Program-made: the position numbers and the translations under genes
Part shown: in pieces, positions 9,170 to 19,142 of the stretch
Position numbering within the stretch: the stretch's first letter is position 1
Layout of the letters: the number at the start of each line of letters is the position of its first letter
Notes under the pieces: generated by a model
Databases searched by the model: none
Seen by the model: only the letters and a program-made list of their open reading frames with translations
Told to the model about the DNA's origin: nothing
Assembly: GCA_963744275.1 (NCBI GenBank)
Contig: CAVUSX010000019.1
Span: 99,639-163,638 of the forward strand
Origin: an uncultured Alphaproteobacteria bacterium
GTDB taxonomy: Bacteria; Pseudomonadota; Alphaproteobacteria; Rhizobiales; Xanthobacteraceae
Reading direction: 5' to 3'
DNA length: 64,000 nt

Positions 9170-9739
9170 ATGTCGAGCATTGCGACAGTCAATGGAGCGA
9201 AAAGCAGAAGCACCTGGGCGATCGTCATCAGCGTGGTACCACTGGTCGTCGTGGGCGGCTTGGCCCTTGCCGCGCAGGACCGGTACTCGCTGAAAATACC
9301 GGATGGACTCGCGTGGTCCGACTTCAGAGGATACGAAACCTGGCAAGATGTCGCGGTAAGTCAGACCGAAACCAGCCTGAAAGTGATCGCGGCGAATGAC
9401 GCGATGATAAACGCATATAGGGACGGCGCTCCCGACGATGGCAAGCTGTTCCCCGACGGCTCCAAGATTACGAAGATCGAGTGGTCCTTCAAGAAAAACA
9501 CTGCGTCTCCCTATTTCGTGAATATCCCGGACACCCTGAAAACGGTTTCGTTCATCGAAAAGGATACCAAGAGATTCCCGAGCACGCACGGATGGGCATA
9601 TGCCCAGTGGGCTTATGATGCAGCGACCGACACGTTCAAGCCATCCGATCTTTCTGCAAGCGGTGCCGAATGCGGGTACGCGTGCCACACGACGGTGGCC
9701 GCCAAGGATTACATTTTCACGGCGTATCCAAAAAGGTGA
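9170..9739 (+). CDS. Cytochrome P460 / cytochrome c'-beta family protein with an unusual CX3CH heme motif
   Basis: GGAGG at 9159-9163 lies 6 nt before ATG 9170 (an alternative in-frame ATG is at 9164). There is a TM/signal segment. The C-terminal AECGYACHTTVAAKDYIFTAYP resembles the P460 tail ...AECAACH...MVFTQFYP recalled from Nitrosomonas europaea. Confidence 0.65.
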   Translation: MSSIATVNGAKSRSTWAIVISVVPLVVVGGLALAAQDRYSLKIPDGLAWSDFRGYETWQDVAVSQTETSLKVIAANDAMINAYRDGAPDDGKLFPDGSKITKIEWSFKKNTASPYFVNIPDTLKTVSFIEKDTKRFPSTHGWAYAQWAYDAATDTFKPSDLSASGAECGYACHTTVAAKDYIFTAYPKR

Positions 9740-12188: not shown

Positions 12189-12827
12189 GTGACCAAGCCC
12201 AAACCTACGCGCCGCGATGTCTTGCGAGTGGCCACCGGCATTGCGGGGGGCGCCGCGGTGGTGGGCGCCGTCGGGGCGGCCGCCTATACGGTGCTGCGCG
12301 GCCAGAGCGATTCCGACGCCGCGCTGCCGGCGGTCGCCGGTACGGTCGACGTCGATCTGTTGCCGCTGCAGCCCGGCCAGCAAGTCATGGTGTTCTGGCG
12401 CACGTGGCCGATCTTCGTGGTCCATCGCGGCCCGCAAGCCGTGACCATGCTGCGCAATTCCGACCTCATCGGCCAATTGTCCGACCCGGACTCCGAGCAG
12501 CTCCAGCAACCGCCCTACGCCCGCAACCCGCAGCGCTCCGTCAAAGCCGAGTTCGCGGTGCTGGTGGGCATCTGCACCCATATGGGCTGTACCCCGACCT
12601 TCTATCCGCAACCCGACGCGCGCGAGCCGCAACCCGATTGGCTCGGCGGCTATCTGTGTCCCTGCCACGGCTCGAAATACGATCTGGCCGGCCGCGTGTT
12701 CGCGGGTTCTCCAGCACCCTACAATCTGCCGGTGCCGCCCCATCGCTTCGTCGGCGACAAGGTGGTGCGCATCGGGGAAAATCCTCCCGGCGTCAATTTC
12801 GATTTCAACGCGATCCAGCAGATTTGA
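12189..12827 (+). CDS. Rieske [2Fe-2S] protein of the ubiquinol-cytochrome c reductase (PetA) type, orphan (no cytochrome b/c1 adjacent)
   Basis: GTG start at 12189 with GGAG 5 nt upstream. Tat/anchor leader TRRDVLRVATGIAGGAAVVG. Rieske boxes CTHMGC and CPCHGS. Confidence 0.85.
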   Translation: MTKPKPTRRDVLRVATGIAGGAAVVGAVGAAAYTVLRGQSDSDAALPAVAGTVDVDLLPLQPGQQVMVFWRTWPIFVVHRGPQAVTMLRNSDLIGQLSDPDSEQLQQPPYARNPQRSVKAEFAVLVGICTHMGCTPTFYPQPDAREPQPDWLGGYLCPCHGSKYDLAGRVFAGSPAPYNLPVPPHRFVGDKVVRIGENPPGVNFDFNAIQQI

Positions 12828-12840
12828 GGCCACAAGCAGC

Positions 12841-13566
12841 ATGAGCGGCGCGAATATCCATGCCGTTTTCGACGTGATCGCCTGGGTGGCTGCCGCGCTG
12901 TCGCTCTATTGGGTGACGCGGCTGTCCGGGTGGCCATTCCCGGCCGTGCCGGCGAACGACTGGCGCTACATCGCGGTGCTGGTGTTCGGCGCCGGGGTCG
13001 GAGCCTTGGTGCTCGGCACCGCCAATCTATGGCTGTCGGAGGAATCCGGCGTCGCCCGCTCGATCGAGGGCGCAATCGCGGGCGGCATCCTGGCGGTCGA
13101 GCTCTACAAGCGCAGCGCCCACATCACGGCCCGCACCGGAGCGCGTTTCGCGCTGCCGCTCGCAGTCGGGGTGGCGGTCGGCCGCATCGGCTGCTATCTG
13201 GCCGGGCTCGACGACTTCACCTTCGGCACCCCGACGACGTTGCCCTGGGGTCACGATTTCGGCGACGGCATTCTGCGCCATCCGGTGCAGCTCTACGAGA
13301 GCGCCGCGATGGCGGCCTTCGCGGTCGTCTACGTGATGCGGGTGCGCCGGAACGACCGCTTCGTGATCGAGAACGGCTTCTACCTCGCGGTCGGCTATTA
13401 TGGGCTGCAGCGCTTCCTGTGGGAGTTCATCAAGCCCTATGGGCCGCTGATCGGCCCCCTCACCCTGTTCCACATTTTCTCCATCCTGATCTTTGCATAT
13501 GCGGTGATCATGATCGCGACCGCGCCGGACCCGAAGGCCGCCGATGATGACCGCGCCTTTACGTAG
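12841..13566 (+). CDS. Divergent prolipoprotein diacylglyceryl transferase (Lgt) family membrane protein
   Basis: Polytopic membrane protein with GRIGCYLAGLDDFTFGTPTTLPWG and RHPVQLYES, which match the Lgt signature regions. Starts 13 nt after the Rieske stop. Confidence 0.75.
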   Translation: MSGANIHAVFDVIAWVAAALSLYWVTRLSGWPFPAVPANDWRYIAVLVFGAGVGALVLGTANLWLSEESGVARSIEGAIAGGILAVELYKRSAHITARTGARFALPLAVGVAVGRIGCYLAGLDDFTFGTPTTLPWGHDFGDGILRHPVQLYESAAMAAFAVVYVMRVRRNDRFVIENGFYLAVGYYGLQRFLWEFIKPYGPLIGPLTLFHIFSILIFAYAVIMIATAPDPKAADDDRAFT

Positions 13567-14965
13567 ATCGCGTCCCTATCTGTTCTGGGGCCAGACCACC
13601 TCGCTGTGCGAGACCTGTCTCGCGCTGGTGCCGGCCAAGATCGAGATTCGCGACAAGGAGGTCTGGTACCAGAAGCGCTGTGCGCGGCACGGCACCCAGA
13701 GCACGCTCGTCTCCACCGACGCCGCCTATTGGAAGCTCTGCAAGGACTATCTCAAGCCGGGCGACCGGTCCCTTTCGTTGCAGAGCCGCACCGAATTCGG
13801 CTGTCCCTACGACTGCGGGCTCTGCCCCGACCACGAGCAGCATTCCTGCCTGGCGCTGATCGAGATCAACGAGCACTGCAATTTGACCTGCCCGGTTTGC
13901 TTTGCGGAATCCTCGCCGACGCGGGAAAAGCAGCTTCCGCTGCCGACCGTCGAGCGCATGCTCGACGCGCTGGTCGCCAGCGAAGGCGAGCCCGATCTGG
14001 TGCAGATTTCGGGCGGCGAGCCGACCTTGCATCCCGAGTTTTTCGCCATCCTCGAGGCGGTGCGGGCGCGGCCCATCCGCCATGTCATGATCAACACCAA
14101 CGGCCTGCGCCTGGCGCGCGAGGGCGATTTCGTGGCGCGGCTCGCCGAGCAGAAGCGCGGGCTCGAGATTTATCTGCAGTTCGATTCGCTCGAGCGCGAC
14201 GCGCTCATGAACCTGCGCGGCGCGGATCTGCGCGGCGTGCGCCGGCAGGCGCTCGAGAGCCTGGAGCGCCACGGCATCTCCACCACCCTGGTGGTGACGG
14301 TCAAACGCGGCGTGAACGACGGCGAGATCGGCGCGATCGTGCGCCACGCGCTCGAATGGCGTTGCGTGCGCGGCGTCACCTTCCAGCCGGTGCAGGACGT
14401 CGGCCGCAACGAGAATTTCGACAAGGATCGCGACCGCGTCGTGCTGTCCGAGATCCGGAAGCACGTCGTCGAGGATTCCGGCGTGTTCGGACCCGACGAC
14501 ATGATCCCGCTGCCGTGCAATCCGGAGTCCATCTCGATCGCCTATGGGCTGCGCAACGGCGGCAAGGTGGTCCCGCTGATGTCGCTGCTGCCGCGCGAGG
14601 AGCTGATCGCCAGCCTCCCCAACGCCATCACCTTCGAGAAGCAGCCGGCGCTGTTGCGCAAATTCATGGAGCTGTTCTCGCTCTCTTCCGGCCCGCAGAA
14701 CGCCGGTGAGCGCATGGGGGAGCTGCTGTGCTGCCTGCCGCAGCTGCCGATCCCCGCGGGCCTCGGCTACGAGAACGTCTTCCGGGTGGCGATCGTGCAG
14801 TTCATGGACCGCTTCAATTTCTGCGTCGGCGGCGTCAAGCGCTCCTGCATCCATTTCGTCACGCCGGCCGGTCAGATCATTCCATTCGACACCTACAATC
14901 TGTTCTATCGAAACGGCAGCATCGAGCGCATCCGCGCGGCGCTGCGGGCGGAGGCCAATTCATGA
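13544..14965 (+). CDS. Radical SAM enzyme, MJ0619 / Tes / GDGT-MAS-like family
   Basis: CX3CX2C motif CNLTCPVC (13877-13900). N-terminal CETC...CARH knuckle. Auxiliary-cluster-like CPYDCGLCPDHEQHSC. C-terminal CIHFVTPAGQIIPFDTYN. Overlaps the Lgt-like gene by 23 nt. Confidence 0.75.
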   Translation: MMTAPLRRSRPYLFWGQTTSLCETCLALVPAKIEIRDKEVWYQKRCARHGTQSTLVSTDAAYWKLCKDYLKPGDRSLSLQSRTEFGCPYDCGLCPDHEQHSCLALIEINEHCNLTCPVCFAESSPTREKQLPLPTVERMLDALVASEGEPDLVQISGGEPTLHPEFFAILEAVRARPIRHVMINTNGLRLAREGDFVARLAEQKRGLEIYLQFDSLERDALMNLRGADLRGVRRQALESLERHGISTTLVVTVKRGVNDGEIGAIVRHALEWRCVRGVTFQPVQDVGRNENFDKDRDRVVLSEIRKHVVEDSGVFGPDDMIPLPCNPESISIAYGLRNGGKVVPLMSLLPREELIASLPNAITFEKQPALLRKFMELFSLSSGPQNAGERMGELLCCLPQLPIPAGLGYENVFRVAIVQFMDRFNFCVGGVKRSCIHFVTPAGQIIPFDTYNLFYRNGSIERIRAALRAEANS

Positions 14966-15210
14966 GTGATCAGCAGGAGGCGCGCCCACGAAGCCCCACC
15001 CCGGGTCGAAACCCATGGGTGACGGCGCTCTTGATTCTGGTCGGGATCATCCTGCTGTTGCCCGGCCTCTGCTCGCTGCTCTTCTCGGCCCTGCTGCTCG
15101 GCGATGCGGACAGCCTCGGCCGCGATCCGGGAATTCTGTCGTTGCTGATTTTCTGCTTCCTGGTCGGTGCCGGTGGGATCGCGCTGATCGTCTTTGCGAT
15201 CCGCCGCTAG
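14962..15210 (+). CDS. 82-aa two-helix membrane protein (hypothetical)
   Basis: The ATG at 14962 overlaps the radical SAM stop (ATGA). Charged N-terminus followed by two hydrophobic helices (WVTALLILVGIILLLPGLCSLLFSALLL; ILSLLIFCFLVGAGGIALIVFAI). Confidence 0.55.
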   Translation: MSDQQEARPRSPTPGRNPWVTALLILVGIILLLPGLCSLLFSALLLGDADSLGRDPGILSLLIFCFLVGAGGIALIVFAIRR

Positions 15211-15339
15211 GGCAGGACGGCCTGCTCAATTGGTCGCAGCCGCAGGCCCGGGTGGCATCTTGTCCGGATATTTTGGCAGACGTAACCTCTATGCTCGGTC
15301 CGGTGAAAATCCGCGTGTGGCACGGCTGGAGAGAATCCC

Positions 15340-16353
15340 ATGGCAAGAACCTGCTGCGTCTCGCTGCTTCCGCTTGTGCTGGCCGGGCTCGTGGCCGCTC
15401 CCACGTTCGCCCGCGCCGATGATTTCTACAAAGGCAAGACCTTCACCATCGTGGTCGGCTTCTCGCCGGGCGGCGGCTATGACGTCAATGCGCGCGGGCT
15501 GGCGCGGCATCTGGGTGCTCACATCCCCGGCAACCCCGGCATCATCGTCCAGAACATGCCGGGGGCCGGCAGCTTGACCTCGGTGCGCTATCTCGACGTG
15601 ACGGCGCCCAAGGACGGCACCGTCATGACCATCTTCAACCCCGGCCTGGTCACCCAGTCCATCATGCAGCCCGACAAGGTGCAGCTCGATTTCCGCCGAT
15701 ACGGCTGGATCGGCGTGGTCACCCCCGACTTCCGGGTCTGCTACGGCTTCGGCCCGAACGGCGTCAAGAGCTGGGACGACATGATGCACCGCAAGGAGTT
15801 CGTCCTGGGCTCGACCGCGCGCGGCTCCGGCAACTACATCAACGGGGCGACGCTGCGGGAGGTGTTCCACGCTCCGATCAAGCAGATCCTCGGCTTCCCG
15901 GGCAGCGCCGAGCAGCGGCTCGCCATCGAACGCGGCGAGCTCGACGGCGATTGCGGCTCCTACAGCAGCATCCCGATCGAATGGATGCGCGACGGCACGG
16001 CGCATCCTTTCGTGCGCTTCACCGAGAAGCGGCCGCCCGAGATACCGGAAAGCGCCGCCTATATCGGCACCTTCGCCAAGACCGACGAGCAGCGGCAAAT
16101 CCTCGATGTGCTCGATGCCTCCGACGAGGTCGGCCGGCCTTTCATCATGTCGAAGCAGGTGCCGCCGGACCGCGTCGCCATCATCCGCAAGGCCTTCGAC
16201 GACACCATGCAGGACAAGGAGTTCCTGGCCGACATGGAGAAGCAGCAGCTGCCGGTCAATCCGATGACCGGCGAGGAGGCCGAGACCATCGTGGCCAAGA
16301 TGATGAACGCCCCGCCCGCGGTCGTGGCCAAGGCCAAGGCGATCTACGAGTAG
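15340..16353 (+). CDS. Bug/TctC-family periplasmic solute-binding protein
   Basis: RBS GGAGAG before the ATG, plus a signal peptide. FTIVVGFSPGGGYDVNARGLARHLGAHIPGNPGIIVQNMPGAGS is typical of the family. Confidence 0.85.
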   Translation: MARTCCVSLLPLVLAGLVAAPTFARADDFYKGKTFTIVVGFSPGGGYDVNARGLARHLGAHIPGNPGIIVQNMPGAGSLTSVRYLDVTAPKDGTVMTIFNPGLVTQSIMQPDKVQLDFRRYGWIGVVTPDFRVCYGFGPNGVKSWDDMMHRKEFVLGSTARGSGNYINGATLREVFHAPIKQILGFPGSAEQRLAIERGELDGDCGSYSSIPIEWMRDGTAHPFVRFTEKRPPEIPESAAYIGTFAKTDEQRQILDVLDASDEVGRPFIMSKQVPPDRVAIIRKAFDDTMQDKEFLADMEKQQLPVNPMTGEEAETIVAKMMNAPPAVVAKAKAIYE

Positions 16354-16510
16354 GCGGCGAGCAAGCCCGGCGTTCGATCCGGCGCCCGCCCGGCGCCATC
16401 GTGGCGGGGCTCGGCGCGCGGGTTGAAACGCCTCCCGATTGCGGGCATGTTCCGCGCGCCCAAGATACCCAAGTCCCCAAATCCAAGTCCCCAAATCAAG
16501 GATCCGTCAC

Positions 16511-17034
16511 ATGTCGTTTTCCATGTCCAAGGCCTCTCTGCCGGCTCTCGAGCTCGGCCTCACCGCGCTGTCGGGAGTGCTCGACAAGGCGCAGGCATTT
16601 GCGACCGCCAAGAAGGTCGATCCCTCGGTACTGCTCGGCTCGCGGCTCTACCCCGACATGTTCGCGCTCACCCGCCAGGTCCAGATCGCGGGGATCTCGC
16701 CAAGAACGGCATGGCGCGGCTGGCCGGCATCGAGCCGCCCCGCTTCGAGGACAATGAGACGACCATCGATCAGCTCAAGGCGCGGCTCGCCAAGACGGTG
16801 GCCTTTCTCAAGACTCTCGACGCGACCAAGATCGATGCCGCGACCGATCGCGAGATCACCTTTCCGCTCGGCCCGACCAACAAGGGCCAGATGAAGGGCG
16901 ACGATTATCTCAACCATTTCGTGCTGCCGAACGTCTATTTCCATCTGACCGCCGCCTACGCGATCCTGCGTCACAGCGGCGTGGAGATCGGCAAGCAGGA
17001 TTTCCTGGGCGCGATCCCGATGAAGATGATTTGA
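16511..17034 (+). pseudogene. DUF1993-family protein, interrupted by a 1-nt frameshift (possible sequencing artefact)
   Basis: The N-terminal part (MSFSMSKASLPALELGLTAL...RQVQIAG) and the C-terminal part (DLAKNGMARLAGIEPP...VEIGKQDFLGA) are in different frames. The junction is at G-run 16690-16693. Confidence 0.7.
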
Positions 17035-18344: not shown

Positions 18345-19142
18345 TCAGAGCACGGCCGCCGCCAAGCCGGCACTGCCCCAGGCGACGAGCCCGGCGCCGA
18401 TGAGGCGGGCGAGGCCGCGGCCCCAGGGCAGCACCTTCTCGGCCAGCACCACGATCGCGATCGCCGCCATCCAGGCCACGTTCATCACGCCGACGACCAG
18501 CAAGAGGCCCATCAGCGCGCCGCAGCAGCCGAGGCAGGAGACGCCGTAACGCAGTCCCCGGCTGATCGTCCCGGCGGCAGTCTCGGACGCCTTTCCGGGC
18601 GGGGCATCGGTACAGGCGCGACAGGCGAGAAGGCAAGCTCGCTTCAAGGGGGTCAGCTGATAAAGCCCAACGGCGATGAGCAGCAAGGCGGCCGCCACGC
18701 GGCTGCGGCTCGCCATCGTCTCCGACAGGAAACCCGCGGAATCGAGGCCCCACTGCAGCAGCGTGGCTGCGATGCTGAAGCCGGTCCAGACCATGAGATA
18801 GCCGCAGGTGAAGAGGAGCGCCGCGACGCGGCCGCCCGCCGTGCCCCCCGGCTCGCGCGTCGGGCCGGCGACCCGCAGAATGGCGGGCGCCGCGCTCGGC
18901 AGCATCATGGCGGCCATCATGACGACCCACATGAAGAGGACGAGCGCCGCGTAGCCCGCCGTCCATGTGGGCGCCATCAGCATGATCTCGCCGCCGCCCA
19001 TATCCATCTTGTCCATCTCGACGCCGGCGCCGTGCAAGAGATAGAGCCAAGACGCCGCGATGAGCGCCGCCAGGAGGGCCAGCACCACGATCCGGTCGTG
19101 ACGCGCTGCGTCGGGCGGGGCGGCGGTCATTGCGGTCCCCAT
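18345..19142 (-). CDS. DUF2182-family predicted metal-binding integral membrane protein
   Basis: Polytopic. Has MWVVMMAAMMLPSAAP and the Cys-rich C-terminal segment CLLACRAC...SCLGCCG. Lies 15 nt downstream of the DUF899 gene. Confidence 0.6.
   Translation of the reverse strand: MGTAMTAAPPDAARHDRIVVLALLAALIAASWLYLLHGAGVEMDKMDMGGGEIMLMAPTWTAGYAALVLFMWVVMMAAMMLPSAAPAILRVAGPTREPGGTAGGRVAALLFTCGYLMVWTGFSIAATLLQWGLDSAGFLSETMASRSRVAAALLLIAVGLYQLTPLKRACLLACRACTDAPPGKASETAAGTISRGLRYGVSCLGCCGALMGLLLVVGVMNVAWMAAIAIVVLAEKVLPWGRGLARLIGAGLVAWGSAGLAAAVL

Follow-up and report, generated by a model that had tools for sequence, protein, structure and literature searches.

Introduction

The described systems closest to the locus reported here are the prolipoprotein diacylglyceryl transferase Lgt and the radical S-adenosylmethionine (SAM) enzymes of the MJ0619 family, represented by Tes, the glycerol dialkyl glycerol tetraether (GDGT) enzyme GDGT-MAS of Methanocaldococcus jannaschii. 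In this study, we analyzed a 64,000-nt stretch of DNA from an uncultured Xanthobacteraceae bacterium (contig CAVUSX010000019.1; this whole stretch is called the window, and positions are given in its coordinates). In this window, an Lgt paralog and a Tes-like radical SAM enzyme (rSAM) are encoded by overlapping genes, with a Rieske gene upstream and a gene for a small membrane protein downstream.

In a 2026 study, Y26, H103, R143, N146, G154 and R239 are listed as essential in Escherichia coli Lgt (PMC13251419). Distant Lgt homologs were reported to carry the substitutions N146C and E151D; M. smegmatis MSMEG_5408, which is present in addition to the main Lgt of that organism, carries Y26H and N146C, and the Leptospira Lgt, also with N146C, partly complements E. 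coli (PMC13251419).

Since 2022, bacterial homologs of Tes have been considered as possible producers of branched GDGTs and other membrane-spanning lipids. They do not track the production of those lipids, and no function has been assigned to them (PMC8941075, PMC13159169). Another radical SAM enzyme, Mss of Thermotoga, is proposed to join bacterial acyl chains by tail-to-tail C-C coupling, as we propose below for the rSAM of the window; it differs in being only remotely related to Tes, in coming from anaerobes and in having no reported Lgt or small-protein partners (PMC13159169).

Our literature searches (TrsS; Lgt with Tes or branched GDGT; the neighbors of MSMEG_5408) returned no description of the gene cassette presented here and no link between Tes and Lgt. 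The cassette is thus built from known kinds of enzyme with an uncharacterized chemistry; the original prediction, which was made from the sequence alone, had rightly treated the function of the gene combination as uncharacterized.

Conservation of the cassette across genomes and phyla

The four open reading frames (ORFs) of the locus encode, in order, a Rieske protein, the Lgt paralog, the rSAM and an 82-aa membrane protein (Table 1). The original prediction had treated them as one four-gene module that would be unexpected in an aerobic alphaproteobacterium. We found that the conserved unit is a three-component cassette, consisting of the Lgt paralog, the Tes-like rSAM and one or more small membrane proteins with a conserved Cys. 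The paralog subfamily, in which GRxGC replaces the GRxGN motif of Lgt, is referred to here as Lgt-C.

When one alphaproteobacterial genome per GTDB species was scanned, 373 relatives of the rSAM were obtained, and the best 80 loci (76-87% identity) were examined. These came from Bradyrhizobium, Rhodoplanes, Pseudolabrys, Tardiphaga and other Hyphomicrobiales. Lgt-C was encoded directly upstream of the rSAM in 79 of the 80 loci, usually with overlapping genes, and the remaining locus had no upstream DNA. The cassette is standard in Bradyrhizobium, Rhodoplanes, Tardiphaga and others, and its presence in an aerobic alphaproteobacterium is not unexpected. A second scan, seeded with a diverse Lgt-C alignment, gave 80 metagenome loci, 36 of which had at least 2.2 kb of downstream sequence and could be evaluated for the rSAM. 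A same-strand Tes-like rSAM was found 35-1550 bp from Lgt-C in 35 of these 36 loci, with identities to the window proteins of 34-59% for Lgt-C and 42-58% for the rSAM. The Rieske gene, in contrast to the other components, was missing from all 80 alphaproteobacterial and all 80 metagenome loci (within 6-7 kb), so that the proposed co-conservation of four genes was not borne out. When all ORFs of the 80 metagenome loci were clustered, no other recurrent neighbor emerged; Lsp, Lnt, isoprenylcysteine methyltransferase (ICMT), methyltransferase and ferredoxin genes were considered as conserved neighbors and rejected, as none recurred in diverse loci.

The cassette was also found outside these sets. 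A tblastn search of plasmids revealed an Lgt-family gene overlapping an rSAM gene (47-48% identity), followed by a 59-64-aa two-helix ORF, in the Bacteroidota Chondrinema litorale and Persicobacter. Among Actinomycetota, the Lgt-family gene of Nonomuraea likewise overlaps the rSAM gene, whereas M. branderi and M. avium have two small ORFs after the Lgt-family gene and before the rSAM gene. The three components are inherited together in many metagenomic lineages and in three named phyla. In five records the cassette lies on a plasmid, which hints that it is mobile. Public annotations name the rSAM genes "radical SAM protein", "tetraether lipid synthase" or "7,8-dihydro-6-hydroxymethylpterin dimethyltransferase", and the Lgt-C genes "prolipoprotein diacylglyceryl transferase family protein".

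Comparison of Lgt-C with E. coli Lgt

The Lgt-C protein of the window matched the Pfam LGT family (PF01790) with 68.6 bits against a cut-off of 24.9 (E 6.5e-19). It scored below the cut-offs of all NCBIfam lgt equivalogs, with 22-39 bits against 119-558; on TIGR00544, for example, the score was 23.3 bits against 118.9. Searches of PDB sequences with phmmer and with a hidden Markov model of close homologs matched nothing, and only the diverse family profile gave a firm match: the diverse Lgt-C alignment (A2) aligned with E. coli Lgt in hhalign with 98% probability and an E-value of 2.6e-13 over E. coli residues 14-285. A Bacteroidota member spanned positions 9-233 of the 240 positions of the PF01790 profile. 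The AlphaFold2 (AF2) model of Lgt-C contained seven helices and had a predicted local distance difference test score (pLDDT) of 76.

The residues around the catalytic site were largely retained. In particular, R143 of E. coli Lgt corresponds to R115 of Lgt-C and G142/G145 to G114/G117, all invariant in the family, and the segment R239..E243 corresponds to the invariant R146HPVQLYE153. Both signature motifs quoted in the original prediction, GRIGCY and RHPVQLYES, are present in the sequence. The two Arg that are essential in E. coli Lgt (the R143 and R239 equivalents) and the RHPxQLYE motif are thus kept. The clearest change is at N146, which falls on C118, and the invariant Cys turns GRxGN into GRxGC; on this substitution the profile alignment agreed with the original by-eye alignment. 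Among 617 clusters of Lgt-like proteins (50% identity level, E<=1e-10), the best 150 representatives were inspected, and GRxGC was present in 123 of the 125 that showed the motif region. Since the N146C Lgt of Leptospira partly complements E. coli, the substitution is compatible with activity. A near-invariant His (His7) lies within one column of E. coli Y26, and the Y26H and N146C changes reported for MSMEG_5408 resemble those of Lgt-C. By the positive-inside rule, the signature loop with C118 is predicted to lie at the periplasmic face, as in Lgt. Unlike E. coli Lgt, which acts on the whole lipoproteome, Lgt-C is operon-coupled to an rSAM and, putatively, to dedicated small substrates.

One 502-aa gene call (P0247) joined an ICMT-like N-terminal part (PF04140) to Lgt-C. 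We did not accept it as a fusion, as its middle looks frameshifted and it may represent two adjacent genes. An ICMT-like neighbor would suit a lipidated-Cys substrate.

Comparison of the rSAM with GDGT-MAS

The rSAM of the window contains a Radical_SAM domain (PF04055, 70.8 bits) and an MJ0619-type N-terminal zinc ribbon (Zn_ribbon_HMPTM, PF23545, 59.9 bits). The nearest solved structure was GDGT-MAS (PDB 7TOL), which phmmer matched over residues 17-326 and 406-462 with an E-value of 2e-61. The Foldseek search revealed 7TOL and 7TOM as the top matches (E 1e-25, TM-score 0.62/0.59, 29% identity; the query was a low-confidence model with a pLDDT of 60.7), and the next match showed a TM-score of 0.36. 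Judged from its sequence and modeled fold, the rSAM is a member of the MJ0619/Tes/GDGT-MAS lineage, as originally predicted. It nevertheless reached only 259.3 bits on the NCBIfam Tes model (NF045702), for which the cut-off is 450 bits.

The overall fold, the rubredoxin-type site, the N-terminal cluster and the radical SAM motif are shared with GDGT-MAS (cofactor motifs as in PMC9433317), and all of the sequence motifs named earlier for this protein (CETC...CARH, CPYDCGLCPDHEQHSC, CNLTCPVC and CIHFVTPAGQIIPFDTYN) are present. The rubredoxin-type site C22X2C25X20C46X2H49 has the same spacing as C9X2C12X20C33X2H36 of GDGT-MAS, and the N-terminal cluster residues C87PYDC91GLC94PDH97 align with GCPYDCGLCPNH of 7TOL (three Cys and one His). 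The radical SAM cluster motif C112NLTC116PVC119 (CX3CX2C) is invariant in the family alignment (A4), and C325, C396, C397 and C435 are invariant Cys of the C-terminal part. This Cys set differs from that of GDGT-MAS, and a C-terminal cluster may still be bound, with different ligands. The rSAM further differs from GDGT-MAS in its bacterial origin, in its constant pairing with small Cys proteins and an Lgt paralog, and in the lack of any isoprenoid ether lipid context.

The best-scoring NCBIfam model, matched over nearly the full length, was that of the TrsS radical SAM (seleno)protein (NF045646), which is recorded only as a selenoprotein family and for which we found no published function. The rSAM scored 297.1 bits, below the cut-off of 490, and its gene contains no selenocysteine codon. 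All ten relatives tested, nine of them linked to Lgt, were below both cut-offs; the nine other Lgt-linked proteins scored 243-305 bits on Tes and 296-341 bits on TrsS. In a small neighbor-joining tree without bootstrap, the Lgt-linked rSAMs of Alphaproteobacteria, Bacteroidota and soil metagenomes formed one clade, with 52-59% identity to the window protein and approximately 33% to GDGT-MAS, and the actinobacterial Lgt-linked rSAMs formed a second, divergent clade.

On haloarchaeal and Mycolicibacterium plasmids (L172 4004-6167; L089 6001-8369), some rSAMs of the Tes family lack an Lgt gene and pair with SAM methyltransferases instead; they appear to be a separate uncharacterized subfamily. 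One of them adjoins a low-molecular-weight phosphatase on a Halorarius plasmid; another, on a plasmid of Mycolicibacterium vanbaalenii, lies next to CcdA, a disulfide oxidoreductase and a second rSAM.

Small membrane proteins with a conserved Cys

The 82-aa ORF had been described simply as a membrane protein of the transcription unit. This description was correct but underrated the ORF. It encodes the cassette's third conserved member, and its motif, a Gly followed by a hydrophobic residue and Cys, is the most informative one. The protein has a basic, Pro-rich N-terminus, a first transmembrane helix with the motif LLLPGLC37S, a short acidic loop, a second transmembrane helix and a C-terminal RR; it matched no family in Pfam and NCBIfam profile scans.

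The motif [hydrophobic]2-x-P-G-x-C-[STAG] was found in a small ORF just 3' of the rSAM gene in 85 of 86 alphaproteobacterial sources. The small gene was present once in 57 sources, twice in 22, three times in four, and four and five times in one source each. One close metagenomic relative (L085, GCA_037024715.1, 9439-10227) contained three tandem PGLC paralogs after the rSAM gene, compared with one in the window. All alphaproteobacterial small proteins contained Gly at position -2 relative to the Cys. The Cys was most often 21 residues past the last charged residue (75 of 122 alphaproteobacterial copies), and in every type of small protein 16-25 mostly hydrophobic residues separated it from a preceding basic segment (for Bacteroidota and mycobacteria, the residues were counted by eye).

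In divergent loci, the small ORFs lie between Lgt-C and the rSAM gene or 3' of the latter, often in tandem. A motif of the form G-hydrophobic-C-[TAGS] is common to several phyla (PGLCS, GAGVCGS, GGLCTG, AGSCFG), for example in metagenomes as ...LLAGGSCFGF..., ...LVGFGMCGLG... and C-terminal ...FLLNATCWG..., in Bacteroidota as C-terminal ...VIGAGVCGSFF and in mycobacteria as C-terminal ...SGGLCTGLNPADYAG. The small proteins have only this Cys motif and the membrane topology in common. By a neutral criterion, we counted as small Cys ORFs those of 40-165 aa that had at least two hydrophobic segments and, within such a segment, a Cys directly preceded by a small residue. Such ORFs were present in the cassette zone of 15 of 20 evaluable metagenome loci (21 in total), and none was present in upstream control zones of equal size.

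The basic segment preceding the Cys is presumably cytoplasmic. The geometry would then match that of a lipoprotein signal peptide with the lipobox Cys at its end, and we propose that the small proteins, as the system's third conserved component, serve as substrate or partner of the enzyme pair.

The Rieske gene as a local addition

Additional PetA paralogs are known outside bc1 operons, as in Rubrivivax gelatinosus PetA2. The Rieske protein of the window resembles these paralogs in being an orphan bc1-type protein with a twin-arginine translocation (Tat) leader and both cluster boxes but without adjacent cytochrome b or c1 genes; it differs in the 22-residue loop between the boxes. It scored 171.9 bits on TIGR01416, the NCBIfam equivalog model of the bc1 Rieske subunit in proteobacteria, against a cut-off of 97.4, and it contains the Tat motif TRRDVL and the boxes CTHMGC and CPCHGS, which the long 22-residue loop separates. 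Its neighbors are an anthrone-oxygenase-like gene and Lgt-C. The original assignment as an orphan PetA-type protein is thus upheld, and by these sequence features it is a bona fide PetA-type paralog.

Linkage of the Rieske gene to the cassette was found only in the closest metagenomic relatives (L082 and L085, 87-92% rSAM identity), where the context matched that of the window: amidohydrolase, anthrone-oxygenase-like gene, Rieske, Lgt, rSAM, small ORF(s) and DUF1993. Because it is shared only by the closest relatives, in a shallow Xanthobacteraceae clade, the linkage is recent and local. The same Rieske paralog family also occurs in a genome in which the cassette is approximately 4 Mb distant. 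The Rieske gene is therefore a lineage-specific passenger outside the conserved cassette, recruited in one Xanthobacteraceae lineage, and is at most co-transcribed with the cassette there. In loci L090 (6001-7270) and L091, a member of this paralog family (CTHxGC, 22 residues, CPCHGSKYD) lies away from the cassette and is followed by a conserved 190-aa ORF, a gene call without a recorded Pfam match.

Proposed mechanism and alternative explanations

Based on the sequence comparisons and on analogy with Lgt and GDGT-MAS, we tentatively suggest that Lgt-C lipidates the Cys of the small proteins and that the rSAM modifies the lipid tails by radical chemistry, a reading in which our confidence falls a little short of even. 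The small protein would insert with its basic segment in the cytoplasm and with the Cys at the prolipoprotein lipobox position, near the periplasmic end of an in-to-out helix. Lgt-C would then move a diacylglyceryl group from a phospholipid onto this Cys as a thioether, and the rSAM would use 5'-deoxyadenosyl radicals to functionalize unactivated carbons of the lipid tails. By analogy with GDGT-MAS, the likeliest outcome would be tail-to-tail C-C coupling, which would either macrocyclize the anchor or join it to a lipid in the opposite leaflet. The lipidation and rSAM steps may also occur in the reverse order. The overlap of the rSAM and Lgt-C genes suggests translational coupling of the two enzymes.

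Several observations weigh against this mechanism. Position -1 to the Cys of the small proteins is often Leu, Ile or Val, not the Gly, Ala or Ser of a lipobox, and these proteins could be structural subunits and not substrates. In Lgt-C, the periplasmic head domain is absent (approximately 27 residues between the signature motif and RHP, compared with approximately 85), and the mycobacterial members have lost the R239-equivalent Arg (MHPSFLYE). The E. coli residue H103 falls on Glu76 (SIEGA) in a variable column (E, V or M), and not on the AGG segment to which the original prediction had assigned it; H103 is weakly conserved among true Lgts as well (PMC13251419). Foldseek with the AF2 model of Lgt-C gave no significant PDB match and did not retrieve E. 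coli Lgt, which we do not take to speak against homology. In the rSAM family, the column of GDGT-MAS Met439 contains Val or Ile, and C458 and C490 of GDGT-MAS (numbered as in the 7TOL chain) are matched by Ile and Asp; as neither the C-terminal ligands nor the labile Met439 is conserved, the coupling chemistry may differ. The topology presents a further difficulty, since the predicted Lgt-C active-site loop and the target Cys are periplasmic and an Fe-S/SAM enzyme must be cytoplasmic, which leaves the access of the rSAM to the product unexplained. Finally, Lgt-C was present in one metagenome locus (L123) where the 7 kb to each side of it contained no Tes-like rSAM.

The alternative that survives best is a lipid-only pathway, in which Lgt-C and the rSAM would remodel bulk lipids, for instance into macrocyclic or membrane-spanning diacylglycerol-type lipids, with Lgt-C passing a glycerolipid to a non-protein acceptor and with the small proteins as scaffolds, regulators or anchors of the soluble rSAM. 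The overall GDGT-MAS fold is kept by the rSAM, the lipids on which GDGT-MAS acts are free phospholipids, and it binds those of E. coli (PMC9433317), and bacterial Tes homologs have been proposed as membrane-spanning lipid synthases (PMC8941075). This pathway, however, leaves unexplained both the lipobox-like Cys that is invariant across phyla and the tandem amplification of the small genes, and the characterized members of the Lgt family are all protein-Cys transferases. We also know of no report that Bradyrhizobium makes macrocyclic or membrane-spanning lipids. Taken together, we regard the lipid-only pathway as possible but rather unlikely.

The arrangement of the small genes could also be read as that of a system resembling RiPPs (peptides made on the ribosome and modified after translation), since tandem short divergent ORFs with one conserved motif beside an rSAM are typical of precursor peptides, and the second-tier structural neighbors of the rSAM are the peptide-modifying enzymes SkfB, CteB and anSME. 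The rSAM would then modify the small proteins directly, for example by introducing a thioether or C-C crosslink at the Cys or close to it, and Lgt-C would be a membrane chaperone, a pseudo-enzyme or another kind of transferase. Four observations make such maturation distinctly improbable. The rSAM matched no SPASM/twitch or RiPP-recognition domain in profile scans and was far nearer to GDGT-MAS than to any peptide maturase (E 1e-25 compared with 1e-8); by prediction, the conserved Cys lies close to the periplasmic face, distant from a cytoplasmic rSAM; and the catalytic-site residues of Lgt-C are invariant, which argues against a pseudo-enzyme.

The two remaining explanations are poorly supported. 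One would have the Rieske protein serve the Lgt/rSAM pair as an integral redox partner, which would fit the 13-nt gap to Lgt-C, the common strand and the linkage kept in L082 and L085. It is very improbable in view of the absence of the gene from the other 160 loci and the occurrence of the same paralog family without the cassette; moreover, from established biochemistry, a Tat-exported, presumably high-potential periplasmic Rieske protein would be unable to reduce a cytoplasmic radical SAM cluster. That Lgt-C is the housekeeping Lgt with unrelated neighbors is scarcely credible, even though an N146C Lgt is the working enzyme of some bacteria such as Leptospira, given its sub-threshold equivalog scores, its missing head domain, a strict cross-phylum linkage to the rSAM, plasmids included, that would be unexpected for a housekeeping gene, and the N146C paralog that M. 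smegmatis holds beside its main Lgt (PMC13251419).

Returning to the lipidation mechanism, a large clade of Tes homologs and a second, actinobacterial clade are locked to an Lgt paralog and to Cys-bearing small membrane proteins. This offers an alternative for bacterial Tes homologs, namely that the substrate is a protein-linked lipid, and a possible role for the unexplained N146C Lgt paralogs of mycobacteria. If the chemistry holds, proteins would be lipidated in a new way and Tes-type radical coupling would have a new use, in hosts that include the genetically tractable Bradyrhizobium and possibly M. smegmatis. In its full form, the proposal would describe a new modification system in which a headless Lgt paralog thioether-lipidates small polytopic proteins at an internal or near-C-terminal Cys and a Tes-like enzyme crosslinks the tails into a protein-anchored macrocyclic or membrane-spanning lipid. 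Such a system would be widespread in soil bacteria, including Bradyrhizobium and mycobacteria, and would explain a large share of the "bacterial Tes homologs" and second Lgt paralogs such as MSMEG_5408. We consider this extended form speculative and, as a whole, unlikely.

Organization and surroundings of the locus

The predicted gene products were identical to those of the genes called on the public contig, and the arrangement was as originally described. Rieske and Lgt-C are separated by a 13-nt gap (12827/12841), the Lgt-C and rSAM genes overlap by 23 nt (13544/13566), and the stop codon of the rSAM gene and the start codon of the small ORF overlap in ATGA. The next gene begins at 15340, 129 nt after the small ORF, in agreement with the roughly 130 nt noted before. 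The upstream palindrome resolved into nested repetitive extragenic palindromic (REP)-like inverted repeats, which probably mark the upstream boundary of the transcription unit, and a terminator-like hairpin is its probable 3' end (Table 1). A promoter scan found no promoter, and an Rfam scan of the whole window (1-64000) found no family at the gathering score.

Table 1. Coordinates of the cassette, its boundary elements and selected neighboring genes in the window.
Feature	Position	Strand	Description
Cytochrome P460 family gene	9176-9739	+	PF16694, 92.8 bits
Nested REP-like inverted repeats	11966-11986/12087-12107 and 12023-12037/12064-12078	not assigned	21-nt arms (90%) and 15-nt arms (100%); 5' of the Rieske gene
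Rieske gene	12189 (GTG)-12827	+	212 aa; orphan PetA-type [2Fe-2S] protein
Lgt-C gene	12841-13566	+	241 aa; prolipoprotein diacylglyceryl transferase paralog
rSAM gene	13544-14965	+	473 aa; Tes/GDGT-MAS-like radical SAM enzyme
Small-protein gene	14962-15210	+	82 aa; two-helix membrane protein
Terminator-like hairpin	15248-15267	+	followed by ATATTTTGG; 3' of the small ORF
DUF1993 gene	16423-17034		
PpoB2-type copper chaperone family gene	18345-19142	-	membrane protein; PF09948, 191.8 bits

None of eight proteins encoded in the flanks of the window was present in the 80 genome loci. In 73 of these loci, including most of those from Bradyrhizobium, the cassette lies upstream of a large ORF, which by eye we take to be the GTPase gene typA/bipA. 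Because the window flanks are not syntenic and the Bradyrhizobium-type loci sit by this typA/bipA-like ORF, the flanks yield no functional hint. A Crp/Fnr-like gene is a frequent neighbor of the cassette in Bradyrhizobium; a FixK/Fnr-type box upstream of the cassette was found in 4 of 65 loci but not in the window, and was rejected as a conserved element.

The cytochrome P460 family gene of the window is located approximately 2.5 kb upstream of the cassette, and an amidohydrolase_2 gene, a MarR regulator and the anthrone-oxygenase-like gene (PF08592) lie between them. The DUF1993 and copper chaperone family genes are found on the downstream side. On the M. branderi plasmid (L174 7823-9468), IS200/IS605 tnpA-tnpB genes are located immediately after the cassette.

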